A program made the translations under genes and the position numbers. A stretch of DNA of 64,000 nucleotides from Candidatus Eiseniibacteriota bacterium (GTDB lineage Bacteria; Joyebacterota; Joyebacteria; Joyebacterales; Joyebacteraceae). Numbering within the stretch: position 1 is the stretch's first letter; the number at the start of each line of letters is the position of its first letter. The DNA lies in NCBI GenBank assembly GCA_043819135.1, contig JBDRFG010000106.1:809-64808 (forward strand). The letters are read 5' to 3'. Below the pieces are notes generated by a model that was not told the origin of the DNA, searched no databases, and saw only the letters and a list, made by a program, of their open reading frames with translations. Shown in pieces: positions 4,808-57,184 of this stretch.

Positions 4808-4808
4808 C

Positions 4809-42472: not shown

Positions 42473-42886
42473 ATGGAAGTCAGAAGGCAAGGTCGCGAAC
42501 TAGCCGTGATGCTCCTGTACCGCGAGAAGCTGACGGGGTTGACGGATCTGGGCATACCGGACATCGACGATGCCGCCGCAGAAGCTCGTGCATTCGCGGC
42601 CACACTCGTTTCCGGGGTGCGTGAGGGGCTCGAGGGCATCGACAGCGCCATAGCCGGCGCCAGCGAGCACTGGGACATCTCGCGGATGGGCATTGTGGAC
42701 CTCACGGTGCTCCGCATAGGTGTGTACGAGCTGTTCGAACGGCCCGACACGCCCGTGGGGGTCATCATCAACGAGGCCGTCGAGATCGCTCGCAAGTTCA
42801 GCTCAGACGAGTGTGGCAAGTTCGTCAACGGGGTTCTGGACCGGATAGCAGGCGACGTCAGGTACGGATCGAAGGCGGAGGGCTGA
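42473..42886 (+). CDS. nusB: transcription antitermination factor NusB
   Basis: RELAVMLLYR...INEAVEIARKF...KFVNGVLDRI matches NusB. It lies downstream of the rib genes, as in many bacteria. Confidence 0.85.
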   Translation: MEVRRQGRELAVMLLYREKLTGLTDLGIPDIDDAAAEARAFAATLVSGVREGLEGIDSAIAGASEHWDISRMGIVDLTVLRIGVYELFERPDTPVGVIINEAVEIARKFSSDECGKFVNGVLDRIAGDVRYGSKAEG

Positions 42887-42896
42887 GAGACTTCCC

Positions 42897-43622
42897 GTGC
42901 GATACGCCATCCTGAGCGACATACACGCCAACTACGAGGCGTTCACAGCGGTGCTCGAGGCGATCGACGCGATGAAAGTCGACGGCATTATGTGCCTCGG
43001 CGACGTCGTGGGCTACGGCGCCAATCCCAACGAGGTGGTGGAACTCACGAGAGAGCGGGCCGATGTGACCACGAAGGGCAATCACGACCATGCCGCGGTT
43101 GACCCGGCCGAGGAGGCCTATTTCAACTCGTGGGCGGTCCAGGCTATTCGATGGACTCGCGACGAACTGACCGAGGAGAATCTGGAGTACCTCAGGAGCC
43201 TGCCGTACGAGAGCCTCCTTCCGGACGCCCGGCTCGTTCACGCGTCCCCGGGAGAGCCCGAGAGGTGGCACTACGTGTTGAGCCCGCAGGCCGCGGCCAG
43301 GGAGTTCTCGACCTTCGAGGAGTCGTTCTGCTTCATCGGGCACTCACACGTTCCGATGATGGTTCTGAGAACCGAGGTGGGAACGAGCGAACTCCTGGAG
43401 GGCGAGGTCGCGCTGCCCGCGGGGGCACGCGTGTTGATAAACGTGGGCAGCGTGGGGCAGCCGCGCAACGGCGACCCGCGAGCGTCTTTCGCCGTGCTGG
43501 ACCTCGAGGACAGGAGCGCGCGGCTCGTGCGGGTCGCGTACGACCTCCAAACGGCCAGGACGAAGATAATCGAGGCGGGGCTCCCGAGATTCCTCGGAGA
43601 CAGGCTTCTGCTCGGGCAGTAG
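42897..43622 (+). CDS. metallophosphoesterase (calcineurin-like MPP superfamily, YfcE-like)
   Basis: MRYAILSDIHAN..., GDVVGYG, GNHD and GHSH metal-binding motifs are present. Confidence 0.7.
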   Translation: MRYAILSDIHANYEAFTAVLEAIDAMKVDGIMCLGDVVGYGANPNEVVELTRERADVTTKGNHDHAAVDPAEEAYFNSWAVQAIRWTRDELTEENLEYLRSLPYESLLPDARLVHASPGEPERWHYVLSPQAAAREFSTFEESFCFIGHSHVPMMVLRTEVGTSELLEGEVALPAGARVLINVGSVGQPRNGDPRASFAVLDLEDRSARLVRVAYDLQTARTKIIEAGLPRFLGDRLLLGQ

Positions 43623-43644: not shown

Positions 43645-44577
43645 GTGCTGACTGCAAGCGTCGGCGTGATGGCATACAACGAAGAGCAGAACATCGACAA
43701 GCTGCTGGCCGCGCTCACCAGCCAGTCGCTCGAGCGCGTGGATATGCGTCAGATAGTCGTCGTGTCCAGCGGCTCGACCGATCGTACGGACGACATCGTT
43801 CGCGAATGGGCCGACAAAGACCAGCGCATCTCGCTCATCAGGCAGGAATCGCGCGAGGGCAAGGCGTCCGCCATCAACCTGTTCCTCGACGCGGCCGACG
43901 CCGACGTCTTCGTACTCGAGAGCGGCGACACCATCCCCGCGCCCGACTGCGTGGAGCACATGCTGGCGCCCTTCGAGAACCCGAATGTGGGGATGACCGG
44001 CGGCCGGCCGACACCCGTCGACGACCCGAACACCTTCATGGGATTCGTGGTGCACATGCTCTGGCGTCTTCACCATATGCTGGCGCTCAAGTCGCCGAAG
44101 CTCGGAGAGATGGTCGCGTTTCGGTCCTTCGTCCGTTCGATCCCGCCTGATACGGCCGTCGACGAAGCCAGCATAGAGGCCATCGTGATCGAACGCGGCA
44201 GTTCCCTGGCCTACGTACCTGAAGCGATCATCTACAACAAGGGCGCGTCGACGGTGGGCGATTTTCTCAAGCAGAGACGGCGCATATACGCCGGTCATAT
44301 CTGGCTGTCGAAGGTCCAGTCCTACGAGGTCTCGACGAAGAGGGTCGGAGGCATCGTCTCCGTCCTCCTGGAAGACCTCACGCCTTCGCCGCGCGCGCTG
44401 CTCTGGACCGCGGGCGGCGTCTTCCTCGAGTTCGTGGGGCGTCTTCTGGGCGCGATCGACTACTACGTGATGAAGAAGAACCCCTATACCTGGGAAGTGT
44501 CCCGAAGCACAAAGAGCCTCGATGCGCCCGCGACTCACGACACAGGAGCCAGGGGGGCGGGGGCGGTCGATGGTTGA
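43645..44577 (+). CDS. family 2 glycosyltransferase
   Basis: The N-terminal GT-A motif is VGVMAYNEEQNI..., with a DxD-like ESGD and R/K..YAG. This is the first gene of the glycan locus. Confidence 0.65.
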   Translation: MLTASVGVMAYNEEQNIDKLLAALTSQSLERVDMRQIVVVSSGSTDRTDDIVREWADKDQRISLIRQESREGKASAINLFLDAADADVFVLESGDTIPAPDCVEHMLAPFENPNVGMTGGRPTPVDDPNTFMGFVVHMLWRLHHMLALKSPKLGEMVAFRSFVRSIPPDTAVDEASIEAIVIERGSSLAYVPEAIIYNKGASTVGDFLKQRRRIYAGHIWLSKVQSYEVSTKRVGGIVSVLLEDLTPSPRALLWTAGGVFLEFVGRLLGAIDYYVMKKNPYTWEVSRSTKSLDAPATHDTGARGAGAVDG

Positions 44578-45655
44578 GATTCTCGCGAAGATCCCACTCT
44601 ACAAGTTGGCTCACGCGACCGGGTGGCCAAGGATCCTCCCGCTCAACCTCACGGTCAGCGTGACCTACCGCTGCAACTCCAGGTGCCTCACGTGCAACGT
44701 CTACACCAAGGACGCTCGTGAATTCACGGCCGAGGAGTTCGACCGAACGTTTCGCTCGCTCGGCCGCGCGCCTTACTGGTACACGATGAGCGGCGGGGAG
44801 CCGTTCCTTCGGTCCGACCTTCCCGACATCTGCGAGAGCGCGTACCGGAACGGACGCCCCGGGATCATCAACATTCCGACAAACGGGCTTCTCTCATCCC
44901 GGATCCCAGCGATGGTAGAGGACCTTGCCGGACGCTGCCCGAAGACGCAGGTCATCATCAACCTGTCGCTGGACGGCGTCGGAGAGGAGCACGACCGGAT
45001 CCGTGGCAGAGACGGGAGCTTCGAGAAGGCCGTCGAGACCTACCGGGGATTGAGGGCGCTCAAGTCACCGAACCTCACGGTGGGCGTTCACACGGTCATC
45101 TCGGTGCACAACGTCGAGCGAATACGATCGATCTACGAATACGTCGTCCGCGAACTCGCGCCGGACTCGTTCATCACGGAGATAGCCGAGGAGCGCGTGG
45201 AGCTCGAGACTCTCGGGGCGTCTATCACACCGACGGCAACCGCTTACGCCGTGGCCGTCGACTTTCTGATCGCCAGGATCAAGGAGCAGGACTACTCAGG
45301 CATCTCGCGCGTCACCCAGTCGTTCAGGGTGCGCTACTATGAGCTCGTGAAGCGATACCTCGCGTCGGGCGCGCAGCCGATCCCGTGCTATGCGGGAGTG
45401 GCGTCGGCCCAGATCGCGCCGGACGGACACGTGTGGTTCTGCTGCATCAAGGCCGAGTCGATGGGAAATCTGCGCGACGTCGACTTCGACTTCAGCCGCA
45501 TCTGGTACGGCGAGAAGGCGATGGAGGAACGGAAGAGGATCCGGGCGGGCGAGTGCGCGTGTCCGCTGGCGAACGCCGGCTACACGAACATGCTGATGCA
45601 CGTGCCGACCGTCACCGGCGTGGCCTTCGAGGTCGCATCGGGAGGGCGGCGGTAG
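44570..45655 (+). CDS. radical SAM protein with Cys-rich SPASM-like C-terminal region
   Basis: The CxxxCxxC triad CNSRCLTC is present with YTMSGGEPFL (the glycine-rich SAM motif). C-terminal cysteines are CYAGV...WFCC...GECACP. The start at 44570 overlaps the upstream GT2 gene by 8 nt. Confidence 0.7.
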   Translation: MVEILAKIPLYKLAHATGWPRILPLNLTVSVTYRCNSRCLTCNVYTKDAREFTAEEFDRTFRSLGRAPYWYTMSGGEPFLRSDLPDICESAYRNGRPGIINIPTNGLLSSRIPAMVEDLAGRCPKTQVIINLSLDGVGEEHDRIRGRDGSFEKAVETYRGLRALKSPNLTVGVHTVISVHNVERIRSIYEYVVRELAPDSFITEIAEERVELETLGASITPTATAYAVAVDFLIARIKEQDYSGISRVTQSFRVRYYELVKRYLASGAQPIPCYAGVASAQIAPDGHVWFCCIKAESMGNLRDVDFDFSRIWYGEKAMEERKRIRAGECACPLANAGYTNMLMHVPTVTGVAFEVASGGRR

Positions 45656-45712
45656 GAAGCCGGCCGCGGAGGCTCCGCGCCCGCTGCGAGAAAAGCGGTC
45701 GCTGGCATCTTT

Positions 45713-46870
45713 GTGAGGGAGAGCGTCGGAGTGGCGGTCTTTCTGGAAGAGATAGGACACCACAGGCTCGGCGATGTCCAGGATGCGATCGAACGCGCGC
45801 TGGACGCGCTCGGCGTGAACCTGTCGGGCAAGCACAGCGCGTTCATCAAACCGAACCTTGTGGTCGCTGCCAGCCCGAAGACCGCCGTAGTTACGCATCC
45901 CGTGGTGGTCGAGGCGCTCGTCAATGTGCTCCGGAAGCGGGGATTCACTTCCATCGCGATGGGCGACGGACCCGGGGTCGGACTCGACGTCGAGGAGGTC
46001 TTCCGCGTCACCGGCTACTCCAAGCTGGCCGCTCGGCTCGGTGTCGAACTCGTCAATCTGAACACGGCTGAGCGTCGGAAGAGGGAGTGGAAGTACGGGG
46101 AGTTGGGAGTTCCCGCGATCGTCGAAGACACCGACCTCTACGTCAACGTTCCGAAGCTCAAGACGCACGGCTACACGACGGTCACGCTCGCGGTCAAGAA
46201 CCACAAGGGGCTGCTGTCCGAGCCCGACAAGAAGCGCGATCACCAGCTGGGGCTGCACGACCCGCTGGCACAGCACGCCTCCATACGTCCGCCGGACCTC
46301 GTCGTGCTGGACGGCATCACCGGAGTCGAGGGCGACGGACCGCTTCACGGACGTGTCGTCAAGTCGCGCGTCTTCGCGGTCGGCACCAACATGCTTGAGG
46401 TCGATTCGGTGGCGGCGCGTCTGATGGGGTTCGACCCCATGAAGGTCGAACACCTGAGGCTCGCGCAGGAACTGGGAGTGGGCGACATGAACCCGGGGGT
46501 CATCGGCGCGGCGCCCTCCAGGGACTTCGAGCCGGCCAACGAGAACTTTGGGAGAGTAGTCAACATATACTCGTGGCGCGACCCGACCGCGTGCTCCATG
46601 TGCATAGACTCCTTCGGCGGCGCAGTGCAGCTGGCGATAAGACGGCCGAAGTACTGGTTCACGCTCGTGCCCAAGCTGGCGTACTGGGGCGTCTTCCGAA
46701 AACTGCACATCATCCAGGGGAAGGCCGCGAAAGTCCCGGACCAGCAGGGACGCGTGATCTGCCTCGGGCAGTGTACCCGGGGGCTTGCGGATAGGGAGGC
46801 GCTCACGCACCTCGCCGGGTGCCCGCCCACACCCGAGGAAGTAGCGGAAACACTCAGGAGGGAGCTCTGA
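45713..46870 (+). CDS. DUF362-family protein (putative Fe-S cluster-binding)
   Basis: The length and architecture are typical of DUF362. Conserved PNLV, KTHGYT and GD.EGDGP segments and C-terminal cysteines (CSMC...CLGQC...C) are present. Confidence 0.55.
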   Translation: MRESVGVAVFLEEIGHHRLGDVQDAIERALDALGVNLSGKHSAFIKPNLVVAASPKTAVVTHPVVVEALVNVLRKRGFTSIAMGDGPGVGLDVEEVFRVTGYSKLAARLGVELVNLNTAERRKREWKYGELGVPAIVEDTDLYVNVPKLKTHGYTTVTLAVKNHKGLLSEPDKKRDHQLGLHDPLAQHASIRPPDLVVLDGITGVEGDGPLHGRVVKSRVFAVGTNMLEVDSVAARLMGFDPMKVEHLRLAQELGVGDMNPGVIGAAPSRDFEPANENFGRVVNIYSWRDPTACSMCIDSFGGAVQLAIRRPKYWFTLVPKLAYWGVFRKLHIIQGKAAKVPDQQGRVICLGQCTRGLADREALTHLAGCPPTPEEVAETLRREL

Positions 46871-46873
46871 CGG

Positions 46874-47728
46874 ATGCCGGCGACCGAGAAGGACACCGGG
46901 CTGGGAACCACGTACGAGCGCGTCGCCGTTGCGCGGCTGCTCGCAAGGCTCGCTGAGAGGCACACGATACACAAGGTCCTCGAGGGACCGACCGACGGCA
47001 TAACGGGCATCAGCGGGCTCAACAGCATCCCGCTGGCGCAGCGGGGCGCCTCCGTCGAGCTCGTGCTCGGCGAGCCGGACGAGGTCGCGCTCGCTGAGCG
47101 CGCATGGAGCGCTCTCGGCCTGAGTGACAGAGTGATCATCCGTTCGGCCGACGGGGATTCCCTCGGTGTCGAGCCGCGCTCGTTCGACCTCGTGTGGAAC
47201 TTCAATTCCCTGCCGCAGGTCGCCTCGGCCGACGCACTTCTCGACGAGATGTGCGAGGCGAGCGCGAGGTTCGTCATGGTCTTTGTCTCCAACACCTGGA
47301 ACTACGGGTTCCCCGTCCACCGCCTCCACCACAAGGCGGCGGGCGAGGCGTGGAGCCACGGCAACATCTCCGTGATGAACACAAGGGTGATCGCAAGGAA
47401 GCTCGCCGACCGGGGATTCGAGGTCGTGGAACGTTTGCTCGTCGACACGCCGTGGTGGCCGGACATCGACTCGCCGATAGAGGAAGTGGCCGCGACCTTC
47501 CTGCCGTTCCTGAAGAGGTTCGTCAGCGGCTCCAAGAGGTTGGAGAGGTACACCTGGACGATCGACACGCTGCCGTACTTCGACGAAGCACGCAGAACCA
47601 AGCTTCTGTCCGACATCGAGAAGCACTTCGCAATAGAGAACACCGGCTTCCCGCCGCTCAAGATCTTCTTCGCCCACCACAGAGGCGTGCTGGCGCAGAG
47701 GCTGAACGGCGAGGAGGCGTCGGCATGA
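46874..47728 (+). CDS. putative class I SAM-dependent methyltransferase-fold protein
   Basis: Rossmann-like motif I is VLEGPTDGITGISG. An acidic post-I residue (VELVLGEPDE) and motif II FDLVWNFNSL follow. The assignment is weak. Confidence 0.4.
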   Translation: MPATEKDTGLGTTYERVAVARLLARLAERHTIHKVLEGPTDGITGISGLNSIPLAQRGASVELVLGEPDEVALAERAWSALGLSDRVIIRSADGDSLGVEPRSFDLVWNFNSLPQVASADALLDEMCEASARFVMVFVSNTWNYGFPVHRLHHKAAGEAWSHGNISVMNTRVIARKLADRGFEVVERLLVDTPWWPDIDSPIEEVAATFLPFLKRFVSGSKRLERYTWTIDTLPYFDEARRTKLLSDIEKHFAIENTGFPPLKIFFAHHRGVLAQRLNGEEASA

Positions 47729-48819
47729 GCAGGCGACTTCGCATGTCGCTCGGGATAGTAGCGGGCGTCGTCCTGCTTGCGCTCGCACTCTGGGGCGTGG
47801 ACGCGGACGAGCTTCGGCGCAACATCGCCGGGGCGAACGCCGGGTGGCTCGTCGCCGCGGCGGTTCTCTACCTGACCGCCTATTTCGTGCGAAGCCTCAG
47901 ATGGCGGGCCATCCTTCGCCCCATCGCTTCGGTGCGCGTCTCCGAGAGCTTCCACATGCTCATGGCCGGGTACTTCCTCAACTACGTCATTCCGATCAGG
48001 GCGGGAGAGGTGGCGAAGTCGTTCTTTCTCAAACGGCTCAAGGGAATCCCGATCGCCACCAGCCTGCCGACGGTATTCGTGGACAAGCTCTTCGAACTCG
48101 TGTCCATCCTCTTCGTCGTCGCCATGGTGCCCATACTCTCCGTCAGCATGAGCGTCACGCTCGCTGCGCTTATCTATACGGTGCTGGCCATCTTCGTTCT
48201 GGCGATCGCCCTCCTGTTCTTCGCGTTCAGAAACCCGGAAGGCGCCTCGCGCCTTCTCTGCGGCCTCATCTCCTGGCTGCCCAAGAAGGTCTACGCCAGG
48301 TTGTCCGAGTTCATCGGGCTTTTCGTCCAGGGCATGGGGGTCGCAAGACGGGAGGCCCGCACGCTGTGGTCGTTCCTCGGGCTAACGGGTCTTGCGGTGC
48401 TCATAGACGGCCTGTACTTCTACTTCATGTTCAGAGCCTTCTCGGTGGATGTCGCCTTTACGCGAGTGCTCTTCGGGTATACTCTCCTGACGCTGTCGTA
48501 CATCCTGCCGACTCCTCCCGCGCAAATCGGCTACAACGAGTTTGTCATCGGGCTGATATTCGCGGGAGGCGTGGCAGCGGCCGGCATGGCGCGCCACGAG
48601 GTGATGGCGGTGATCATAGTCGCGCACGCCCTGACGGGGCTCCTGATAGCCGGCGTCGGCCTGTGGTCGTTCGGCGCGATGGGCATTAGGGTGGGAGAGA
48701 GCTTCAGGAATATCACGGGCGCCTACGGGCCGGGGCCGGACGGCCCGGCCGAGGGCGCAGCCAGTACCGGCGAAACGACGCGCGGACGGACGTGCAGCGG
48801 GAGGTCGGAACGTGGGTGA
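47725..48819 (+). CDS. flippase-like integral membrane protein (UPF0104 / lysylphosphatidylglycerol-synthase TM-domain family)
   Basis: The protein has about 8 TM helices. The conserved AGYFLNYVIPIRAGEVAKSFFLKR segment is typical of the family. The ATG overlaps the upstream stop as ATGA. Confidence 0.6.
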   Translation: MSRRLRMSLGIVAGVVLLALALWGVDADELRRNIAGANAGWLVAAAVLYLTAYFVRSLRWRAILRPIASVRVSESFHMLMAGYFLNYVIPIRAGEVAKSFFLKRLKGIPIATSLPTVFVDKLFELVSILFVVAMVPILSVSMSVTLAALIYTVLAIFVLAIALLFFAFRNPEGASRLLCGLISWLPKKVYARLSEFIGLFVQGMGVARREARTLWSFLGLTGLAVLIDGLYFYFMFRAFSVDVAFTRVLFGYTLLTLSYILPTPPAQIGYNEFVIGLIFAGGVAAAGMARHEVMAVIIVAHALTGLLIAGVGLWSFGAMGIRVGESFRNITGAYGPGPDGPAEGAASTGETTRGRTCSGRSERG

Positions 48820-49792
48820 CATCGTCCTTGTAACGGGCGCGGCGGGCTTCGTCGGCTCACACGTCGTCGAGCGCCTGCTCGCCGACGGCAGGAACGTCCG
48901 CGGGGTGGACGCCTTCACGGACTACTACCCGCGCGCGTTCAAGGAAGAGAACCTCCGAGGAGCGCGTGACAACGCGTCCTTCGAGCTCGTGGAGGCCGAC
49001 CTGGCGGTCGCCGACCTCGCGCCCATCCTCGACGGAGTGACGTCCGTCTGCCACCTGGCCGCCCAGGCGGGGGTCAGGGCCAGCTGGGGTACGACGTTCT
49101 CGACGTACATCAAGTGCAACATTCTGTCGAGCCAGCGTCTGCTCGAGGCCGTCAAGGACGGAGGCGTCTCCAAGTTCGTTTACGCCTCGTCTTCCTCGGT
49201 CTACGGAGAGACCACGGACCTTCCGATGCGCGAGAACGGGCTCACCTGCCCGGTGTCCCCTTACGGCGTCACCAAGCTCGCCGCCGAACATCTCGCGGTG
49301 CTCTATCACCGGAACTACGGCGTCCCGACCGTGTCGCTGAGGTACTTCACCGTCTACGGTCCGCGCCAGCGACCCGACATGGCGTTTCATCGTTTCATAC
49401 GCTCGGGACTCCTCGACGAGCCCATCACGATCTACGGCAACGGCCACCAGACGCGCGATTTCACTTACATCGACGACACCGTCGCCGCTACCGTTGTGGC
49501 CCTTGAATCGGGCCCCGATGGAAGCGTGCTGAACGTAGGGGGTGGGAGCCGTGTCACACTCAATGACGCTCTGGACGCCATAGAGGGCTGCCTGGGCGCT
49601 GCTCTCGACAGGCGCTACGTCGAGCGCGCCAGGGGAGACGTCACTGACACGCTCGCTGACAACTCGAGGGCCAGAGAGACACTCGGCTTCCGTCCGCGCG
49701 TCGGGCTCCCGGAGGGATTGGAGCGCGAGAGGGAGTGGATCGAATCGACGGCGCTCACGCTTGGCGAGGGCGCGAACGGGGAGGTCGGCTGA
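48812..49792 (+). CDS. NAD-dependent nucleotide-sugar epimerase/dehydratase (extended SDR)
   Basis: The Rossmann motif VTGAAGFVGSHV, the catalytic YGVTK and the YFTVYGPRQRPDMAF motif are present. Confidence 0.8.
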   Translation: MGDIVLVTGAAGFVGSHVVERLLADGRNVRGVDAFTDYYPRAFKEENLRGARDNASFELVEADLAVADLAPILDGVTSVCHLAAQAGVRASWGTTFSTYIKCNILSSQRLLEAVKDGGVSKFVYASSSSVYGETTDLPMRENGLTCPVSPYGVTKLAAEHLAVLYHRNYGVPTVSLRYFTVYGPRQRPDMAFHRFIRSGLLDEPITIYGNGHQTRDFTYIDDTVAATVVALESGPDGSVLNVGGGSRVTLNDALDAIEGCLGAALDRRYVERARGDVTDTLADNSRARETLGFRPRVGLPEGLEREREWIESTALTLGEGANGEVG

Positions 49793-49795
49793 CAC

Positions 49796-50749
49796 ATGGA
49801 TATCTCTATCGTGATACCGCTTCTGAACGAGGCCGACAGCATCAGAGAGCTGTACGAGCGCATCGGGGCCGCGCTCACTCCCCTCGGGCGGGAGTGGGAG
49901 GTAGTTTTCATCAACGACGGCAGCACCGACTCCTCGATGGACGTCCTGCGGAGCCTCCACGAACAGAACGACAACGTCAGGGTGCTCGTGTTCGGCCGGA
50001 ACCTCGGCAAGTCGGCCGCTCTCAGCGTGGGGTTCAAGGAAGCCGCGGGCGATGTCGTGTTCACGATGGACGCCGATCTGCAGGATGACCCGGCCGAGCT
50101 GCCCGCGATGCTCGAGGTCATAGAGAGCGGGTACGACCTCGTCTCAGGCTGGAAGAAGGAACGCCATGACCCGCTGTCCAAGCGGCTCCCGTCGAAGCTC
50201 TACAACGCGGTGACCGCGAGGCTCTCCGGCGTACGCATCCACGACATGAACTGTGGTCTCAAGGCCTACCGTTGCCAGGTCGTGAAGACCATCAGGGTAT
50301 ACGGCGAGCTTCATCGCTACACGCCCGTCCTGGCGCAGTGGGCGGGCTTCACGGTGACCGAGGTCGTGGTCAAGCATCACGCGCGCCAGTACGGCCGCTC
50401 CAAGTTCGGCGCGGAGCGCTTCGTCAGGGGGTTCTTCGACCTCGTGACGGTGCTGTTTCTGCGCCGCTACATCACGAGGCCCCTCCACCTGTTCGGGATG
50501 CTGGGCGCGCTGCTGTTCGCGGGCGGATTTCTCTCCGGGGTCTATCTGACGGTCCTCAAGCTCATGGGAGAGGCGATAGGCCGCAGGCCTCTCCTGACCC
50601 TCGCCATTCTACTCATGGTCATCGGCGTGCAGTTCATCTCGTTCGGCCTCCTCGGGGAGATGGTGGCGAATCTCAAGGGGGACGACATCTCGTTCCCCGT
50701 GAGGGAACGTCTGGGCCGGAAGGGCGGTGAGCTTGGCGACAGCGCCTGA
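49796..50749 (+). CDS. polyprenol-phosphate glycosyltransferase, GT2 (DPM1/ArnC/GtrB-like) with C-terminal TM hairpin
   Basis: ISIVIPLLNEADSI...VVFINDGSTD...DADLQDDP form the DxD region. Two C-terminal TM helices follow. Confidence 0.75.
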   Translation: MDISIVIPLLNEADSIRELYERIGAALTPLGREWEVVFINDGSTDSSMDVLRSLHEQNDNVRVLVFGRNLGKSAALSVGFKEAAGDVVFTMDADLQDDPAELPAMLEVIESGYDLVSGWKKERHDPLSKRLPSKLYNAVTARLSGVRIHDMNCGLKAYRCQVVKTIRVYGELHRYTPVLAQWAGFTVTEVVVKHHARQYGRSKFGAERFVRGFFDLVTVLFLRRYITRPLHLFGMLGALLFAGGFLSGVYLTVLKLMGEAIGRRPLLTLAILLMVIGVQFISFGLLGEMVANLKGDDISFPVRERLGRKGGELGDSA

Positions 50750-51935
50750 CAGGAGTTCGCCCGCGGACGCGCCTCTCGCGACCGAGGAAAGCGCGCGCAT
50801 TGCCGTCGTCGGCCCGGCCTATCCGCTCCGGGGCGGCAACGCACTCTTCGTCGCCCACCTCTACGACAACCTCAGGCTCGACCACGACACGTACGTCGTC
50901 TCGTTCACGCGGCTGTATCCGTCTCTGCTCTTCCCGGGGAAGACGCAGATGAACGTCAGCCGCGACCCCGTGAAGAACACGCCGTCGCGGCAGATCATCG
51001 ATTCCGTCAATCCGTTCTCCTGGCTGAAGGCTGTCAGGTGGATCTCCCAGCCGCGGAGACGACCCGACATGGTCGTCTTCGTCTGGTGGAACCCCTTCTT
51101 CGGAATATGCTACGGCACGATGGCGCGGTTGCTCCGGCGAAGGACAGGCGCCCGTGTGGTCTTCGTGTGTGAGAACGTCGTGTCACACGAGAACCGGTTC
51201 GCCGATCAGTTCCTCACGAAGTTCGCGCTCGCTTCGGCCGACTACTTCATGGTCCTTTCCGGCGTCGTCGCGAACCGCGTCCACTCACTCTTCCCTCGGA
51301 CGCCGGTGAGGCAAGCGGCGCTGCCGATCTACGACTGCTACGCACCGTCCGGGATCGACAGAGACGCGGTCAGGAAATCGCTGGGACTCACGCGGCCGAC
51401 CGTGCTCTTCTTCGGTTACGTCCGCGAGTACAAGGGCCTGGCGTATCTGCTCCGTGCGATGCCCCTGATACTCAAGGAGGTCGACGTAGAGCTGCTCGTC
51501 GTCGGGGAGTTCTACGACGACCGCTCCAAGTACGACCGGATCATCGACGAATTGAGCTTGGGCGAGCGGGTCCATGTGGTCGCCGAACACGTCCCCGACG
51601 AGTCGGTTGGGGACTACTTCTTGGCCGCCGATGTGGCCGTGCTGCCCTACGTATCGGCCACGCAGAGCGGAATCACTCAGATAGCCATTGCCGCAGGCCT
51701 TCCCGTGATAAGCACCGACGTCGGGGGACTCCCTGAGGTGGTGCGGGACGGGGAAACGGGCTATATTGTGAAACCTGAGGACGAAGGGGAGCTTGCTGCC
51801 GCCGTCGTGCGATACTTCAAGAGCGGAGATGCCCCTCGGATGAGGGCGAACGTGGCCCTGGAGGCCCAGCGCGACCACGCGGGTGACCTTATGCGCAGGG
51901 CCGTTCGTGACTTCCTCGAGATGGCGAGGTCTTAG
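50727..51935 (+). CDS. family 4 (GT-B) glycosyltransferase
   Basis: The C-terminal GT4 signature is EYKGLAYLL...GEF...GLPVISTDVGGLPEVVRDGETGYIV. Confidence 0.75.
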   Translation: MSLATAPDRSSPADAPLATEESARIAVVGPAYPLRGGNALFVAHLYDNLRLDHDTYVVSFTRLYPSLLFPGKTQMNVSRDPVKNTPSRQIIDSVNPFSWLKAVRWISQPRRRPDMVVFVWWNPFFGICYGTMARLLRRRTGARVVFVCENVVSHENRFADQFLTKFALASADYFMVLSGVVANRVHSLFPRTPVRQAALPIYDCYAPSGIDRDAVRKSLGLTRPTVLFFGYVREYKGLAYLLRAMPLILKEVDVELLVVGEFYDDRSKYDRIIDELSLGERVHVVAEHVPDESVGDYFLAADVAVLPYVSATQSGITQIAIAAGLPVISTDVGGLPEVVRDGETGYIVKPEDEGELAAAVVRYFKSGDAPRMRANVALEAQRDHAGDLMRRAVRDFLEMARS

Positions 51936-51936
51936 G

Positions 51937-52833
51937 GTGCAGCATCCCCCAGTCTGGGCGGTCGTTGTCAACTGGAATGGTCTAGAGGTTGTCGAGCCCT
52001 GTCTGCGGACGCTGCTCGCCTCGTCTTATCCGAACCTCTCGGTGCTGGTCGTGGACAACGCGTCGTCCGACGGGTCCGCGCATTTCGTGCGTGAGGAGTT
52101 CCCTTCCGTGCGCGTGGCCGAACAGCCGTCGAACCGCGGCTACGCGGCCGGAGTGAACGCGGGTCTGACAGTCGCGCTCGATGGGGGAGCGGAGTACGTG
52201 CTGCTCCTCAACAACGACATCGAACTGGACGCCGGGGCGGTGAGCGCTCTGGTCGATGTCGCGACCGCGCATCCGCAAAGCGCGTTCGTTGGTCCCATGA
52301 TCTACTACGCCGACCGTCCGAACGTCATCTGGTCGGCGGGGGGCGCCGTCTCCTTCTGGTCAGGTGGTATACGGCACCTCGGGCTGCGGGAGGAGGACGT
52401 CGGACAGTATGCCGGCGTCCGAGAGGTCGACTACGTCACCGCGTGTGCCGTGCTCGCTTCCGCGAGCGCCGTCAGGAAGATCGGCCCGATGGACGAAAGC
52501 TACTACATGTACAACGAGGACACGGACTGGTGCGTCCGTGCCCGAAGTGCGGGGTTCACCGTGCTCGTCGCTCCGACCGCGAAGATCTGGCACAAGGTCT
52601 CGATGAGTTCAGGCGGCGGGCTGACGCCTTTCAGGATCTACAACCGGTTGCGCAGCACCCTGAGGTTCTTCTCCCTGCACGCGCGGCCGTACCACTGGCT
52701 CGGTATCCTCCCTCTGACGGCGTGTCGGACCGTTGGCTTCGCGGCGCGCGAACTGGTCGGAGGAAGGGGCGGCAACGTCGGAGCGGTCCTGCGGGGACTC
52801 TGGGATTCGATCACGAGACGAAGGAGAGCCTGA
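51937..52833 (+). CDS. family 2 glycosyltransferase (rhamnosyltransferase-like)
   Basis: AVVVNWNG...VVDNASSDGS...LLNNDIEL..., YMYNEDTDWCVRA are typical GT2 features. It is paralogous to the N-domain of the last gene in the locus. The GTG at 51937 lies 2 nt after the upstream stop. Confidence 0.75.
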   Translation: MQHPPVWAVVVNWNGLEVVEPCLRTLLASSYPNLSVLVVDNASSDGSAHFVREEFPSVRVAEQPSNRGYAAGVNAGLTVALDGGAEYVLLLNNDIELDAGAVSALVDVATAHPQSAFVGPMIYYADRPNVIWSAGGAVSFWSGGIRHLGLREEDVGQYAGVREVDYVTACAVLASASAVRKIGPMDESYYMYNEDTDWCVRARSAGFTVLVAPTAKIWHKVSMSSGGGLTPFRIYNRLRSTLRFFSLHARPYHWLGILPLTACRTVGFAARELVGGRGGNVGAVLRGLWDSITRRRRA

Positions 52834-52837
52834 ACAA

Positions 52838-54259
52838 GTGCACAGAACGCACTACACGAAGACACCCCCGGCTGCCACCGGACGCCGCGCGCGGGCGCTG
52901 ACCGTCGCGAGCGCGTTCGCTGCGGCCGTTCTGCTGGCGATGCTCCTGCCGCTGGCCGGGTGCTCGAGCGAGGAACCCCCGGCAAGACACCCGCGCCTCG
53001 TCCTCTTCGGGATTGACGCGGCGAACTGGAACATTCTTACCCCCATGATGCAGGCGGGCGAACTGCCTGCCATGACTTCGCTGGTCAATCGCGGCTCCTT
53101 CGGAGTGTTGAAGACGGGTGTACCGATCCAGTCGCCGCAGATGTGGACATCAATAGCAACGGGTGTCGTTCCGGAGAGGCACGGCATCACGCGTTTCACG
53201 GCCGTGATCCCGGGAACGGACCGCGAAGTCCCGGTGACGAGCAACATGAGGAAGGTCAAGGCCTTCTGGAACATCCTCTCCGAGGCGGACGTCTCCGTCG
53301 GCATCGTGGGATGGTGGCCGAGCTGGCCCGCCGAAGAGGTCAACGGTTTCATGATCGCGCAGCGCGCGTGGCCCGTCAACTGGAGCCGTCACGGGATCCC
53401 GTTCGGAGCCGCACGCGATGCGTCGGGACGTCTGATCGTTGAGGACTTCCCGGGACGAACCTACCCGGAGGAGCTCTACGCTGACTTCGAGCCGTTCATC
53501 ATCACCGAGGAGGACGTGACGGCCGACGAGCTGTCTCTCCTCTTCCAGGACCCCTCGTTCACCAACCCGGCCAAGCAGTTCCACGCCCGGTGGGTGTTCG
53601 CCAAGGACAAGACCTTCGCGGACGCGGGGCTGGCGATGCTCAAGCGCTTCAATCCGGATGTGTTCGCGGTCTATCTGCAGGGCACGGACGTGGTGTCCCA
53701 CTACTACTGGGGCGATCAGCGCGAGGAGGGCTTCGTCGTCTCTCCGTCCAACGAGCGGCTGTACGGCAGCGTCGTGAGGAACTATTACCGCTACGTCGAC
53801 GGCGTGATCGCGGATTACCTCGCGGAGATCGGTGACGACACGACCGTCATGATCGTGTCCGACCACGGCTTCGAGACCAAGCGCGACCTCAAGGAGCTGT
53901 GGGAGAGAGGCGAGAAGATAAGGACCGTGGAAGGCGGCAAGGACGTACCGTGGGACCACGGCGTGGACGGCGTGTTCATCATGGCGGGCCCCGGTATCAG
54001 GGAAGACTTCAGACTGCCGGAGGCGTCGGTGGTGGACATCACCCCGACGATGCTCGCCTACCTGGGACTCCCGGTGGCCGAGGACATGGACGGAGTTCCT
54101 GTGCTCGCGGCGTTCACCGAGTCCTACCTTGCGCAATACCCGGTCACGTTCGTTCCAACGTACGAGACCGACGGGCCCCGGGGCGACGATGCTCCGATGG
54201 AGTCGCCGATGGATGATGGGATCAAGGAGAAGCTCAGGGCGCTCGGCTACATAGAGTAG
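52838..54259 (+). CDS. AlkP-superfamily type I phosphodiesterase/nucleotide-pyrophosphatase-like lipoprotein
   Basis: The signal peptide has the lipobox LAGC. LVLFGIDAANWNIL, VPERHGI and IVSDHGFE metal-site motifs are present. The C-terminus ends in LGYIE. AAGGAGAG lies before the GTG start. Confidence 0.65.
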   Translation: MHRTHYTKTPPAATGRRARALTVASAFAAAVLLAMLLPLAGCSSEEPPARHPRLVLFGIDAANWNILTPMMQAGELPAMTSLVNRGSFGVLKTGVPIQSPQMWTSIATGVVPERHGITRFTAVIPGTDREVPVTSNMRKVKAFWNILSEADVSVGIVGWWPSWPAEEVNGFMIAQRAWPVNWSRHGIPFGAARDASGRLIVEDFPGRTYPEELYADFEPFIITEEDVTADELSLLFQDPSFTNPAKQFHARWVFAKDKTFADAGLAMLKRFNPDVFAVYLQGTDVVSHYYWGDQREEGFVVSPSNERLYGSVVRNYYRYVDGVIADYLAEIGDDTTVMIVSDHGFETKRDLKELWERGEKIRTVEGGKDVPWDHGVDGVFIMAGPGIREDFRLPEASVVDITPTMLAYLGLPVAEDMDGVPVLAAFTESYLAQYPVTFVPTYETDGPRGDDAPMESPMDDGIKEKLRALGYIE

Positions 54260-54293: not shown

Positions 54294-55400
54294 ATGCCGA
54301 TTCATGTCAAGACCGATTGCAGACTGTTTCTGGGTGACAGGCCCTGCGCGTGGGGCGGGCGGTGCGAGGCGTGCGAGCACTACGCTCCACGGGGCGAGCA
54401 CATAGTCGTCGTCAAGCTGGCGGCGGCCGGTGACGTGCTCCGCACCACGTCGATACTGCCTCCTCTCAAGAGGGCGCATCCCGACTCGTACGTTACCTGG
54501 ATAACCGACCGCGGCGCGCTCCCGTTGATGGAGCGCAATCCCTTCATTGACCGCGCGCTGCCGTTCTCGTTCGGCACGTGGCTCACGCTGTCCGTGCAAT
54601 CCATCGACCTTCTCATCTGTCTGGACAAGGAGGAGCGCGCCTGCGCGCTTGCCTCGTCACTCGACGCCGCCGCGAAAGTCGGATTCGCGATGTCGTCAGC
54701 AGGCGGAGTGGAGCCGCTGAACGACGGGGCGCGTTACGACTACGAGCTGGGCCTGTCCGACGAGATGAAGTTCCGCGAGAACACGATGACTTATCCTGCG
54801 ATCTTCTGCCGGACCGCCGAACTGAAGTATGAGAGCGAGCCCTACATGCTGGCTCTCCCGGAGCTATCGATCGAGTACGCCCGGCGCTTCCTTGGAGGCC
54901 TCTCGTTCACAGAGCCGCTCGTGGGGCTCAACGTGGGCGCGGGTCGCGTTTTCGCGAACAAGGCCTGGACACCGGCGGGGTACGCCGCGCTGGCCGATGC
55001 GGTACGCGAGCGGCTCGGAGGGACGGCGATCGTCCTCGGCGGGCCGGACGACAGAGAGCGGGCCGAAGCGGTGATGGCCCTGGCGCCCGAGACGACCGTA
55101 GACGGCGGGCTGCATGAGGTCCTCGATTTCGCGGCCATCGTGGGCATGCTCGACGCGATGGTAACGGGGGACACGCTGGCGATGCACATAGCGATCGCTC
55201 TCGGCGTGCCCGTGATCGCGCTGTTCGGACCCAGCGCGCCTCAGGAGATCGAACTCTTCGGCTCAGGCGGGAAGGTGCTGACACCGCTCGACTGCGCGCC
55301 CTGCTACAGACGCGTGTGCGACAGGAGCCCGTCCTGCATGGACGCGATCGGTTTGGAGAGCGTGTTCGCGGCGCTCAAGGAGGCTCTCGAAGAGGCATGA
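54294..55400 (+). CDS. family 9 glycosyltransferase (heptosyltransferase-like)
   Basis: IVVVKLAAAGDVLRTTSILPPLK is the GT9 N-terminal motif. VGLNVGAG..., GGPDD and VTGDTLAMHIAIALGVPVIALFGPS match the RfaF/WaaC family. Confidence 0.75.
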   Translation: MPIHVKTDCRLFLGDRPCAWGGRCEACEHYAPRGEHIVVVKLAAAGDVLRTTSILPPLKRAHPDSYVTWITDRGALPLMERNPFIDRALPFSFGTWLTLSVQSIDLLICLDKEERACALASSLDAAAKVGFAMSSAGGVEPLNDGARYDYELGLSDEMKFRENTMTYPAIFCRTAELKYESEPYMLALPELSIEYARRFLGGLSFTEPLVGLNVGAGRVFANKAWTPAGYAALADAVRERLGGTAIVLGGPDDRERAEAVMALAPETTVDGGLHEVLDFAAIVGMLDAMVTGDTLAMHIAIALGVPVIALFGPSAPQEIELFGSGGKVLTPLDCAPCYRRVCDRSPSCMDAIGLESVFAALKEALEEA

Positions 55401-57184
55401 CCGCTGATACTCCTCATAATCCCCGCGGCCGAGGCGAAGGCGTGATGTGGAGAACGCTCGTCCTCACGTCCGTCGGATTCGCGCTGGCAACCGGCGCCCT
55501 GTTGGGCGTCACGGGCCTCAGGACCAGCGGTTTCGCGCTGTCACTCGCGCCGCGTCAGATTCTGCCCATGCTCGTCGCGTTCGCGGTTGTGTACGCCGCG
55601 CTCGGCGGGCTGGTTCTTCCGCTGACGACCCGCTCCAGAAGACGAGCGCCCACTCCCGGCGCCTCAGAGCGCGCGGTCTTCGGAGCTCTGGCGACCGTGA
55701 CCCTCTGGGTCGCACTTGTGCTCACGTTCCTTCCGCTCAAGGGTTCAGAGGCCTTCGTGCGGGCGGACACGCTCACGACGCTCCAGCTGAACGTGATAGG
55801 GCTCGCGGTCGTGTTGGTGGTCGGGCTCGTTGTCGGGTGGCTCTTAGCGTGGGCGCTGTCGCGCGTGCTCTCGTTTCTGAGGAGGCGTGTCCCCGGAAGG
55901 GGAGTGGCCGTCGTCGGAGCGATCTGCGCCGTGGTCGCTCTCGTCGTCCTTCTGGTTGGAGTTCAGGCGCGGACGGGCGGCGGGGGCGCTGGGAGCGCAT
56001 CCTCAGCGGCGGGTTCGGCGCCGCGCGTGGCCATCATCGGAGTCGACGGATGCGACTGGGAGAAACTCGGTCCACTGGTCGAATCCGGGAGACTTCCGAA
56101 CTTCGAGCGCTTGATGGAGCGGGGCGCACACGGGACGCTGTGGTCGGAGCCGCCCCTGATATCCCCGCGCATATGGACGACCATTGCGACGGGCAAGTCC
56201 GCGGACAAGCACGGCATCCGCGATTTCGTCAACGAGGCGGGCGTGCCCGTGAACGCGACCATGAGGTCAGCGGCGCCCGTGTGGGACATCGTATCCAGCT
56301 TCGGCCTTCCGGTCGGCGTCGTCGGGTGGTACGTCACGTGGCCCGTCGACGAGGTCAACGGCTTCCTGCTGTCCGACCGACTTCACTCGCTCATGCGCGG
56401 GCCCGTGCAGGTGCTTCAGTCGCTCGGCGGACGCCCCACCAACGAACGTCTGCAATCGTTCGGAGCGTTCACGTTCGACCCCGGATACAAGCGCTATCCG
56501 AGCGATGAGCTCCACCATCAGCAGAACAGGATCGTCGACGAGCCCCTTCGCTGGGGATACCTCCGGGACGCCATCTACTCCCGCATGTCGACAGCGCTGA
56601 CTCCCAGCTACAGGCCGACCCTGTCGGCCGTCTACCTGCGTGGCGTCGACTTCGTCCAGCACTTCTTCTGGAAGTACGCGGACCCCGAGCCTTTCGGGGA
56701 CGTTCCCGACGAGGACATCGCCGCCTACGGTGGTGTCATAGACAACTACTACGTCTACACGGACAAGCTTCTCGGCCGGCTGCTCGATGCGCTGGGCGAC
56801 GACGTCAACATCATCGTGGTCTCCGACCACGGCTTCAAGGCGCGCCTCGACCCGGACCCCGGGAGGCCTCAGCTGACCGGAACGCACGACGTGGCCGGGG
56901 TCTTCATTGCCTCCGGTCCTGCATTCAGTGCCTCGGGACGGTTCGAAGACGCGACGATATTCGACATCACACCCACGGCGCTCGCCGTCATGGGACTGCC
57001 AGTCGGGGAGGACATGGACGGCAGGGTGCTGACCGAGATCATCGAGGAGCAGCATCTCGCCGCCCGCCCGGTGTCGTTCATTCCCTCATACGAGCCCGCC
57101 GTCGGGAAGGAGAGGGGAGAAGTCGGGTCGACGATGGACGACTCGATCAGAGAGCAGCTCAAGTCGCTTGGCTACATCGAGTGA
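55397..57184 (+). CDS. membrane-anchored AlkP-superfamily type I phosphodiesterase-like protein (paralog of 52838..54259)
   Basis: About 5 N-terminal TM helices precede an extracytoplasmic domain with VAIIGVDGCDWEKL, DKHGI and IVVSDHGFK. The C-terminus ends in LGYIE like its paralog. The ATG overlaps the upstream stop as ATGA. Confidence 0.65.
   Translation: MTADTPHNPRGRGEGVMWRTLVLTSVGFALATGALLGVTGLRTSGFALSLAPRQILPMLVAFAVVYAALGGLVLPLTTRSRRRAPTPGASERAVFGALATVTLWVALVLTFLPLKGSEAFVRADTLTTLQLNVIGLAVVLVVGLVVGWLLAWALSRVLSFLRRRVPGRGVAVVGAICAVVALVVLLVGVQARTGGGGAGSASSAAGSAPRVAIIGVDGCDWEKLGPLVESGRLPNFERLMERGAHGTLWSEPPLISPRIWTTIATGKSADKHGIRDFVNEAGVPVNATMRSAAPVWDIVSSFGLPVGVVGWYVTWPVDEVNGFLLSDRLHSLMRGPVQVLQSLGGRPTNERLQSFGAFTFDPGYKRYPSDELHHQQNRIVDEPLRWGYLRDAIYSRMSTALTPSYRPTLSAVYLRGVDFVQHFFWKYADPEPFGDVPDEDIAAYGGVIDNYYVYTDKLLGRLLDALGDDVNIIVVSDHGFKARLDPDPGRPQLTGTHDVAGVFIASGPAFSASGRFEDATIFDITPTALAVMGLPVGEDMDGRVLTEIIEEQHLAARPVSFIPSYEPAVGKERGEVGSTMDDSIREQLKSLGYIE

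Follow-up and report, generated by a model that had tools for sequence, protein, structure and literature searches.

A radical-SAM enzyme with a conserved glycosyltransferase partner and DUF362, methyltransferase-like and flippase-like neighbours in a glycan operon of Candidatus Eiseniibacteriota

The subject of this analysis is a stretch of 64,000 nt from a Candidatus Eiseniibacteriota contig (JBDRFG010000106.1), referred to as the window, to which all coordinates refer, and in particular three adjacent genes within it, encoding a radical S-adenosylmethionine (SAM) enzyme, a DUF362 protein and a methyltransferase-like (MT-like) protein. The window has a GC content of approximately 64% and carries nearly all of its genes on the plus strand. 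All three genes are confirmed as real; they are long plus-strand open reading frames (ORFs) with a GC content at third codon positions (GC3) of 0.82-0.88 and numerous homologues over their full length (55-94% identity), the best of which derive from metagenome-assembled genomes (MAGs) of Candidatus Eisenbacteria. Upstream, the stop codon of a family-2 glycosyltransferase gene (GT2a) overlaps the start of the radical-SAM gene by 8 nt (ATGGTTGA at 44570), while the gap between the radical-SAM and DUF362 genes amounts to 75 nt and that between the DUF362 and MT-like genes to 3 nt; downstream, the MT-like stop overlaps the start of an LPG_synthase_TM (flippase-like) gene by 4 nt (ATGA at 47725). 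Since the ORFs overlap or nearly abut and no terminator-like sites were found in the intergenic stretches between these genes, the trio is co-transcribed, as predicted from sequence. With such overlaps and gaps, and with glycosyltransferases on both flanks, the tight coupling of the trio within a glycan locus that a first-pass annotation of this DNA had described was borne out. The cassette, however, reaches one gene beyond the trio on each side, to GT2a and to the LPG_synthase_TM gene. A regulatory RNA or terminator in the spacer between the radical-SAM and DUF362 genes was considered and rejected, as its predicted RNA fold is no better than that of shuffled sequence (z = -0.64) and the spacer proper is free of terminator-like sites; a single weak stem (45724-45736) lies across the probable start of DUF362. 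Likewise, an antisense ORF of 830 aa (45296-47788, minus strand), which runs across all three genes and does not display the high-GC3 coding signature, was dismissed as a high-GC artefact. Antisense shadow ORFs of this kind gave rise to apparently 'conserved' neighbourhood clusters which merely mirrored the sense genes and need to be filtered out.

Conservation of this arrangement was assessed by comparing 85 radical-SAM loci, with neighbours counted within 8 kb; 64 of these loci lie outside Eisenbacteria and represent 14 taxon groups. A GT2a orthologue (41-57% identity), usually located directly upstream of the radical-SAM gene, is present in 34 of the 64 loci and in 12 of the 14 groups. DUF362 and LPG_synthase_TM genes were each found in 8 loci from 6 groups, MT-like genes in 8 loci from 5 groups, and genes for short-chain dehydrogenases/reductases (SDRs) of HpnA/OleD type in 32 loci from 7 groups. 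The whole ten-gene array, including the SDR, ArnC-like GT2, GT4 and GT2 genes downstream, is kept in 19 of 19 Eisenbacteria-like loci. Elsewhere, DUF362, MT-like and flippase-like genes join the GT2-radical-SAM pair in a minority of cases, namely in Methanoperedens, Methanomassiliicoccales, Dehalococcoidia and other Chloroflexota. One Dehalococcoidia MAG (L038) harbors the same five families in another order (GT2a, radical SAM, MT-like, DUF362, flippase-like), whereas in Methanoperedens the GT2a-radical-SAM pair faces a DUF362-MT-GT4 block beside a second radical-SAM gene, UbiA and PMT. Partial cassettes were encountered in Chloroflexota (L056), in Methanoperedens (L003, L041, L043) and in loci L086 and L087. 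The latter two belong, together with L088 and L089, to the loci found by starting from distant DUF362 relatives. Here, L086 reads GT9, GT2a, radical SAM, MT, second radical SAM/SPASM, DUF362, HpnJ-like radical SAM, GT2, MT; L087 reads GT2, GT2a, radical SAM, DUF362, GtrA, HpnA-like SDR; L089 has GT4-MT-DUF362 beside a second radical-SAM gene, UbiA and PMT, with no GT2a-radical-SAM pair nearby; and L088 holds a 31%-identical DUF362 in an unrelated context. GtrA, UbiA and PMT, as present in these related loci, belong to lipid-carrier machinery.

For a family with a few copies per genome, the rate of chance occurrence within 8 kb may be put at about 1% of genomes, a rough guide rather than a computed statistic. 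Because recurrence across phyla and domains in shuffled gene order exceeds this guide, the linkage is real. Co-conservation of DUF362 and radical-SAM genes thus extends beyond this genome, to 6 of the 14 other groups including archaea. At the same time, the conserved core is the GT2a-radical-SAM pair, whereas DUF362 and the MT-like protein (with the flippase-like protein) form an accessory block, so that the triad proposed in the first-pass annotation does not hold as a unit. In related loci, MT-like and DUF362 genes always occur together, even where GT2a and the radical-SAM gene are not nearby (L089). A second, different radical-SAM gene (best matches NirJ1, AhbC and the PTO1314 family; approximately 100-113 bits), paired with genes for UbiA and a PMT-family GT-C, is found at L003 14801-16882 and L089 3740-5830, both Methanoperedens-type loci, beside the GT4-MT-DUF362 genes; DUF362-MT can therefore partner another radical-SAM lineage. 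Separately, two Chloroflexi loci (L069, 7377-9415; L081, 11496-13604) carry tandem MT-like paralogues downstream of the radical-SAM gene with no DUF362 nearby. The order nusB, GT2a, radical SAM is common to Cloacimonadales (L073, 8650-11083; L079) and the Eisenbacteria-like loci, the latter with an extra metallophosphoesterase gene in between, a pattern that may reflect ancient placement and vertical inheritance of the pair in Cloacimonadota and Eisenbacteria, both of which we take to be members of the Fibrobacterota-Chlorobiota-Bacteroidota (FCB) group.

The SDR genes deserve separate treatment. A first clustering placed an SDR in 38 of 66 loci and made the window SDR appear to be a conserved radical-SAM partner; this was rejected, as those SDRs are only 25-31% identical to it and HpnA/OleD-like. 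The window SDR itself is LegB/RmlB/GalE-like, and its orthologue occurs in 0 non-Eisenbacteria loci. HpnA-like SDRs reach 165-182 bits against TIGR03466, i.e., they score best against HpnA and remain below its cut-off. Orthologous DUF362 (at least 40% identity) and HpnA-like SDR never stand together beside the radical-SAM gene (7 versus 32 loci), and the 19 Eisenbacteria-like loci carry DUF362 only, with no HpnA-like SDR by the radical-SAM gene. This distribution suggests that the two may be alternatives for the same two-electron step.

Natural fusions of radical-SAM homologues point independently to glycosyl transfer at the membrane. Protein P0495 carries a C-terminal GT2 domain of Glyco_tranf_2_3 type and P0446 an N-terminal GT4 domain, while P0456 includes a PTPS_related membrane domain (sub-threshold, 22.9 bits versus 26.4), presumably GT-C-like, and P0418 an N-terminal multi-pass domain matching PF03706 over its full length, again sub-threshold. 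Partner domains are not orthologues of the window proteins, an idea rejected with the GT2 of P0495 being only 23% identical to GT2a and P0418 showing no BLASTP similarity; the fusions therefore support the link at family level only. Together with the neighbouring GT2 orthologues, these fusions to GT2, GT4 and membrane domains support the earlier proposal that the radical-SAM enzyme is connected to glycan or lipid glycosylation.

In case of the radical-SAM enzyme, the start at 44570 (MVEIL...) agrees with the N-termini of its homologues, and the protein scores 62.9 bits against PF04055 (cut-off 29.5). Both the CX3CX2C motif (C35/C39/C42) and SGGEP (residues 74-78) are invariant in 48 sequences, and five auxiliary cysteines (C273, C291, C292, C329 and C331) are invariant as well, in agreement with the CxxxCxxC signature and Cys-rich C-terminus noted at first pass. 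Canonical SPASM domains are defined by a seven-cysteine motif (CX9-15GX4C ... CX2CX5CX3C ... C) and two auxiliary [4Fe-4S] clusters. Here, the first half of this motif is kept (C273-x12-G286-x4-C291), whereas the CX2CX5CX3C block is replaced, with C292 and C329-x-C331 in its place, so that five instead of seven auxiliary cysteines are found; the Pfam SPASM match is weak (25.9 bits versus 21.5). Of the previous label 'SPASM-like', only the first half of the motif is thus retained, and the C-terminal sequence fits a truncated, Twitch-like SPASM domain with a single putative auxiliary cluster. None of the curated NCBIfam equivalogs is reached, the best among the matches listed being ScmE with 81 bits versus a cut-off of 400; HpnH (42.8 versus 225), Tes (42.7 versus 450), PqqE (48 versus 381) and MftC (53 versus 265) score similarly low, and the cut-offs for NirJ, AhbC/D, MoaA and HxsC are not reached either. 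According to Pfam, a B12-binding domain is absent, and HpnJ is not among the 25 matches listed of 46 NCBIfam matches. The AlphaFold2 (AF2) model, with a mean predicted local distance difference test (pLDDT) score of 92.9, displays alternating strands and helices and matches radical-SAM structures at a probability of 1.0. Its nearest solved folds are SkfB, CteB, BlsE, SuiB, DesII, anSME, MoaA and viperin, with BtrN also among the matches, all at no more than 18% identity; the presence of the sugar-modifying enzymes BlsE and DesII and of the dehydrogenase anSME in this list speaks for an action on sugars. Overall, the enzyme can be placed in the SPASM/Twitch group, several members of which modify sugars, and in no characterised family, which agrees with the earlier statement that no named role can be assigned.

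The family itself is widespread, comprising 617 clusters (50% identity) at E<=1e-30, with relatives encoded in more than 470 species genomes. Hosts include Ktedonobacteria (several of them cultured), other Chloroflexota, Cloacimonadota, Streptosporangiaceae, Solirubrobacteraceae, Dormibacteraeota, Methanoperedens and Methanomassiliicoccales, at 53-60% identity to the window protein; in all, eight or more lineages of bacteria and two orders of archaea are represented. Such strong constraint across lineages suggests that the enzyme catalyses a specific and important reaction and that its substrate is conserved. One homologue of 745 aa (P0412) contains an intein (Intein_splicing/HINT), which separates the radical-SAM core from the SPASM-like domain.

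As for the flanking cassette members, the GT2a profile is closest to PDB 6YV7 (1.5e-21), a structure we take to be the minimal cellulose-synthase-like archaeal mannosyltransferase PcManGT, and corresponds to a minimal cellulose-synthase-like catalytic domain. Its Q-R-R-R-I motif aligns with the QxxRW region of BcsA, and a conserved amphipathic segment at the C-terminus suggests that the enzyme may associate with the membrane surface. GT2a is not of ArnC, GtrB or DPM1 type (17.5 bits against ArnC; its profile matches DPMS, GtrB and ArnC in the N-terminal part only). The LPG_synthase_TM protein scores 91 bits against the TIGR00374 flippase-like domain (cut-off 43).

Assignment of the MT-like protein relies on its family. 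While the window protein falls just under the Pfam cut-off (Methyltransf_11, 20.6 bits versus 21.2), 15 of 17 family members match Methyltransf_11 (best 7.6e-14), and the family profile matches RebM (3BUS) at 1.3e-8 and the D-glucose O-methyltransferase 6UV6 at 4.3e-8. Motif I is an atypical glycine-rich stretch, VLEGPTDGITGISG, with the family pattern L-E-x-P-x-D-G-x-x-G-x-x-G instead of the canonical E/DxGxGxG, and lies outside the PDB-aligned region; a conserved C-terminal extension of about 100 residues has no match at all. Judged by these profiles, the protein is a class I methyltransferase relative at family level, as the Rossmann/methyltransferase-like call of the first pass had it, and its family appears closest to sugar O-methyltransferases. 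An exact-sequence look-up of the protein returned no record.

The third member of the trio, DUF362, matches PF04015 with 154.9 bits (cut-off 24) over profile positions 2-200 of 200. To our knowledge, no member of this large family has been characterised, and no function for DUF362 was found in the literature searched. Because GAGGGAG precedes the GTG at 45731 and homologues are 379 aa in length, this codon is the likely start instead of the ORF opening; residues are nevertheless numbered on the 385-aa ORF. An invariant polar set (K46, P47, N48, N145, K150, H152, K162, N163, H177 and D231, with T151 nearly invariant), such as is typical of an enzyme active site judging from the sequence, is complemented by cysteines in the C-terminal domain, namely the invariant C294, C354 and C370 and the nearly invariant C297. 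These four form a probable metal or Fe-S site. Their pattern, C294-x2-C297 ... C354 ... C370-P-P, extends across some 75 residues in a domain resembling LarA_C and differs from the ferredoxin-type CX2CX2CX3CP in a small fold, and no Fer4 Pfam match was obtained; even so, these cysteines may plausibly bind an Fe-S cluster or Zn.

Structurally, the AF2 model (pLDDT 92.7) comprises two domains, and its top 16 Foldseek matches in the PDB are all LarA-superfamily structures (LarA, Mar2 and LarA-like) with E-values from 7e-8 to 5e-4 and probabilities of 0.99-1.0, yet a global template modelling (TM) score of only about 0.4. In addition, the Pfam DUF362 model scores above its own cut-off on genuine LarA (lactate racemase) proteins, and DUF362 and the LarA N-domain share one Pfam clan, CL0471 (PMC11770544). 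From the predicted fold, the common clan and these model scores it follows that DUF362 is a LarA homologue. Sequence comparison is less informative: no Lar_N or LarA_C Pfam match was found in DUF362, PDB searches with the single sequence and with a profile returned noise only, so that LarA was revealed by the predicted fold alone, and a local hmmsearch of the DUF362 subfamily model against LarA gave no signal. An hhalign alignment to a single LarA sequence was meaningless and was discarded. Against a low-diversity LarA profile, a sensible register was obtained at a probability of only 1%, in which H152 aligns with LarA His174, the Arg75 and Lys184 loops fall into gaps and the non-conserved H164 lies opposite His200. 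In LarA, Lys184 tethers the nickel-pincer nucleotide, His200 is a nickel ligand, Arg75 is a further residue of this set, and His108 and His174 are catalytic (PMC11770544). The spacing H152-x9-K162-x14-H177 in DUF362 nearly equals H174-x9-K184-x15-H200 in LarA (sequence checked against 5HUQ), and an alternative register via H152, K162 and H177 is possible. LarB-, LarC- or LarE-like proteins were not seen among the window proteins scanned. The LarA fold is known from hydride-transfer enzymes (PMC11770544), and the DUF362 model looks more like an enzyme than like a simple ferredoxin partner.

Downstream, the cassette continues into a larger set of glycan genes (Table 1). Lipid-carrier machinery is represented in the window by the ArnC-like GT2, a Wzx-like flippase, a YfhO-like protein and a Bac_transf priming enzyme, and RmlA and RmlD are encoded as well.

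Table 1 Features of the cassette and its surroundings, with window coordinates
Feature	Coordinates	Strand	Profile match or remark
ribD-ribE-ribBA-ribH-nusB	up to 42886 (nusB 42473-42886)		
Metallophosphoesterase	42897-43622		
GT2a, family-2 glycosyltransferase	43645-44577	+	Pfam Glycos_transf_2 1.5e-25, Glyco_tranf_2_3 1.2e-11
Radical-SAM enzyme, 361 aa	44570-45655	+	PF04055 5e-17, PF13186 1e-5
Spacer radical SAM/DUF362	45656-45730	+	probable DUF362 ribosome-binding site GAGGGAG
DUF362, 379 aa from probable GTG	45731-46870 (ORF opens 45713)	+	PF04015 4e-45
MT-like, class I SAM-methyltransferase relative, 284 aa	46874-47728	+	sub-threshold Pfam, family-level Methyltransf_11
LPG_synthase_TM/flippase-like membrane protein, 364 aa	47725-48819	+	PF03706 2e-41
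Nucleotide-sugar (NDP-sugar) SDR	48812-49792	+	
ArnC-like polyprenyl-phosphate GT2 (GT2b)	49796-50749	+	205 bits to ArnC
GT4	50727-51935	+	
GT2	51883-52833	+	
Alkaline-phosphatase-superfamily proteins, two	52733-54259 and 55316-57184		
GT9	54294-55400		between the two alkaline-phosphatase-superfamily genes
Wzx-like flippase	57168-58493		
YfhO-like protein	58307-60880		
GT2	60877-61590		
GT2 and Bac_transf priming enzyme	61530-63785		

Based on the coupled operon, the conserved neighbours, the fusions, the lipid-carrier machinery and the predicted folds of the radical-SAM and DUF362 proteins, we propose that the five-gene cassette of GT2a, radical-SAM enzyme, DUF362, MT-like and flippase-like protein, as part of a larger operon for cell-envelope glycans, assembles a modified sugar on a carrier or acceptor bound to the membrane, for instance polyprenyl phosphate or a lipid-linked glycan. 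A probability of roughly one half is given to this proposal, and much less to any particular reaction. In such a pathway, GT2a would move a hexose from a nucleotide sugar to the lipid-linked acceptor at the cytoplasmic face, and the Twitch-type radical-SAM enzyme would then abstract a hydrogen atom from that sugar; with a single auxiliary cluster, it could convert CH-OH into a keto or radical intermediate, as in oxidation, epimerisation or diol dehydration. DUF362 might carry out the follow-up two-electron step, i.e., ketoreduction or stereoinversion, a role that an HpnA-like NAD(P)-dependent SDR appears to take in lineages lacking DUF362. Subsequently, the MT-like protein would O-methylate a sugar hydroxyl, the LPG_synthase_TM protein would flip the product outward, and periplasmic GT-C enzymes, e.g. 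the YfhO-like protein, might add it to a polymer. While genes, families, predicted folds, neighbourhoods and fusions are results of the analysis, the substrate, the sequence of steps and each of the reactions named here are inferred.

Several observations weigh against this proposal. The closest solved relative of the radical-SAM enzyme is the peptide maturase SkfB, and all its fold matches are remote (at most 18% identity). As a glycosyltransferase outside the ArnC/GtrB/DPM1 type, GT2a may lengthen a glycan instead of loading a carrier. The PF03706 match in P0418 amounts to 24.6 bits against a cut-off of 33.4, and its domain lacks BLASTP similarity to the window flippase-like protein. In many Ktedonobacteria, the radical-SAM gene has just an SDR as neighbour, a GT2 being absent within 7 kb. 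Mutual exclusion of DUF362 and SDR is confounded by phylogeny and has exceptions, with L087 holding both and L042 and L080 combining a distant DUF362 with SDRs. Moreover, no biochemical data on any cassette member were found in the literature searched.

Among competing explanations, tailoring of a soluble sugar is the one to be taken most seriously, while still being unlikely. According to this, the radical-SAM enzyme, DUF362 and the MT-like protein act on a cytoplasmic nucleoside diphosphate (NDP)-sugar, as BlsE, DesII and AprD4/AprD3 do on their substrates, before GT2a or another glycosyltransferase transfers the product. The proximity of BlsE and DesII in fold, and of BlsE in sequence too, the NDP-sugar-type SDR in the operon together with RmlA and RmlD in the window, the resemblance of the MT family to the sugar O-methyltransferases RebM and 6UV6, and a recurring radical-SAM/SDR pair reminiscent of the deoxygenation by AprD4/AprD3 all speak for it. 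Fusion of some radical-SAM homologues to membrane domains and the recurrence of flippase-like or GtrA proteins in the cassette, however, favor a membrane-bound substrate, and the SDRs which track the radical-SAM gene elsewhere resemble lipid-associated HpnA/OleD, not NDP-sugar dehydratases. Alternatively, GT2a could glycosylate a membrane lipid whose sugar is subsequently contracted or rearranged by the radical-SAM enzyme to a cyclitol-type, acid-stable head group, by analogy to HpnI/HpnJ and to the archaeal calditol synthase Cds, the mechanisms of HpnJ and Cds being summarised in PMC13459092. The surrounding family set is of hopanoid type (Glyco_tranf_2_3 GT2, radical SAM, HpnA-like SDR, LPG_synthase_TM), L086 contains an additional HpnJ-like B12-radical-SAM protein (156 bits), and both the occurrence of the family in archaea and bacteria and the geranylgeranylglyceryl phosphate (GGGP) synthase of the window would suit such a lipid. 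This reading nonetheless seems decidedly improbable, given a radical-SAM enzyme lacking a B12-binding domain and HpnJ among its listed NCBIfam matches, a GT2a with no HpnI match, hopanoid-family scores that are all under cut-off and a window free of squalene-hopene cyclase.

The role of DUF362 offers a further choice. The first-pass annotation regarded it as a dedicated, non-catalytic Fe-S electron-transfer partner of the radical-SAM enzyme, for which four conserved cysteines, with Pro-Pro after the last one in the manner of ferredoxin-type ligands, the fusion of other DUF362 proteins to 2x[4Fe-4S] ferredoxin domains (P0235) and the proximity to a radical-SAM gene in several unrelated gene arrangements could be cited. 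We consider this improbable in view of the LarA-like predicted fold over the full length, the invariant polar set in the N-terminal domain and the constant company of an MT-like gene; as DUF362 lies near only 8 of 64 non-Eisenbacteria radical-SAM genes, the radical-SAM enzyme does not need it. Finally, the radical-SAM enzyme might be a maturase of ribosomally synthesised and post-translationally modified peptides (RiPPs) or of a cofactor that resides in a glycan locus by chance, and its best NCBIfam and PDB matches (ScmE, HxsC, SkfB, PqqE, MftC, NirJ) are indeed of that kind. Scores 4- to 15-fold under the family cut-offs, gene packing that leaves no space for a precursor ORF, glycosyltransferases and membrane proteins as conserved neighbours and fusion partners, and window protein scans that found no pyrroloquinoline quinone (PQQ), mycofactocin or heme d1 genes nearby render this extremely improbable, and it was rejected. 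The two findings named at first pass as potentially fatal to the glycan interpretation, i.e., a radical-SAM enzyme from an unrelated known family and a lack of DUF362/radical-SAM co-conservation, thus did not materialise, and the interpretation as a whole is partly supported.

Returning to tailoring on a membrane-bound carrier, a more specific version may be formulated: DUF362 would derive from LarA and serve as redox isomerase or reductase, with a nickel-pincer-type or Fe-S-assisted hydride cofactor, acting on the lipid-linked sugar jointly with a new radical-SAM enzyme of Twitch type. The two would provide a route adapted to anaerobes and independent of NAD(P), leading to an O-methylated sugar that is epimerised or deoxygenated, with NAD(P)-dependent SDRs replacing this route elsewhere. 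This is speculative and, on balance, doubtful. As the cassette also occurs in archaea and the window holds a GGGP synthase gene, an acceptor common to both domains, namely an isoprenoid ether lipid or carrier, is conceivable.

Further genes of the window provide context. The PcrB/GGGP-synthase gene (13289-14053, plus strand) scores 291 bits against NF003198 (cut-off 247) and 211 against TIGR01769 (162); FCB bacteria reportedly carry archaeal-type ether-lipid genes. A UbiA-family gene (17401-18291, plus) matches decaprenyl-phosphate phosphoribosyltransferase with 264 bits versus 234 and is followed 1.5 kb downstream by a phosphoribosyl pyrophosphate (PRPP) synthetase gene (19837-20772, plus), which suggests a donor pathway for a polyprenyl-phospho-pentose resembling decaprenylphosphoryl ribose or arabinose (DPR/DPA); the window proteins scanned include no epimerase resembling DprE1/DprE2. 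Selenocysteine synthase SelA (31050-32462, plus; 5e-131) and an alpha/beta pair of 2-oxoacid:ferredoxin oxidoreductase (3614-5738, plus) fit an anaerobe that uses selenoproteins, a setting in which the oxygen-sensitive chemistry of radical-SAM enzymes is plausible. Over the 64 kb, a single gene on the minus strand is clearly coding (29270-30520, 416 aa, GC3 0.85), and it has no Pfam or NCBIfam match.

No description of a GT2a-radical-SAM-DUF362 cassette was found in the literature searched. Its conserved partners offer a first testable biochemical setting for DUF362, a domain related to nickel-pincer enzymes, and the cassette is present in the culturable species Ktedonobacter racemifer, Tengunoibacter tsumagoiensis, Dictyobacter kobayashii and Ktedonosporobacter rubrisoli. 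Studying these enzymes could uncover a new way of modifying sugars in the envelope glycans or glycolipids of little-known phyla (Eisenbacteria, Cloacimonadota, Methanoperedens).

Compared with known systems, the cassette displays both resemblance and deviation. RebM (3BUS) and the D-glucose O-methyltransferase 6UV6, the best profile matches of the MT-like protein, are both sugar O-methyltransferases, but the aligned part is confined to the residues that follow motif I, the SAM loop deviates from the usual form and the C-terminal extension is unmatched. With the nickel-pincer lactate racemase LarA, DUF362 shares the two-domain fold in prediction and the Pfam clan; in contrast, its Cys4 motif is not found in LarA, and its context is glycan biosynthesis instead of 2-hydroxy-acid metabolism. 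BlsE, which acts on a nucleoside-sugar, and DesII, which acts on a nucleotide-sugar, are among the best structural matches of the radical-SAM enzyme (BlsE with TM scores of 0.63/0.69 and a sequence profile match of 3e-8, DesII with E 1e-9), but at 15-18% identity, with a different auxiliary cysteine pattern and with BlsE not among the listed NCBIfam matches. In AprD4/AprD3 and BtrN/anSME, auxiliary-cluster radical-SAM enzymes act on a CH-OH group, followed by a separate two-electron reductase; in sugar C3' deoxygenation, AprD4 is the radical-SAM diol dehydratase and AprD3 the NADPH reductase. The radical-SAM/SDR or radical-SAM/DUF362 pairing fits this scheme, although identity to any solved member does not exceed 18%, AprD4 is not among the listed NCBIfam matches, and their substrates are soluble aminoglycosides or proteins, whereas a lipid-linked sugar is proposed here. 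Regarding the combination of families, the hopanoid genes HpnI (GT2), HpnJ (radical SAM), HpnA (SDR) and HpnL, a member of the LPG_synthase_TM family, are among the closest systems, since the same set clusters here and the logic of glycosylating a membrane lipid and then applying radical chemistry to the sugar would be shared. They differ in that the radical-SAM enzyme described here is of Twitch type and not a B12-binding HpnJ, that no score reaches a hopanoid cut-off and that the family also occurs in archaea, which make no hopanoids; we also know of no DUF362 or MT-like gene in hpn clusters. Radical-SAM tailoring of sugars and glycolipids is a known theme, represented by HpnI/HpnJ, AprD4/AprD3, DesII, BlsE and Cds, and the components of the cassette derive from known superfamilies.

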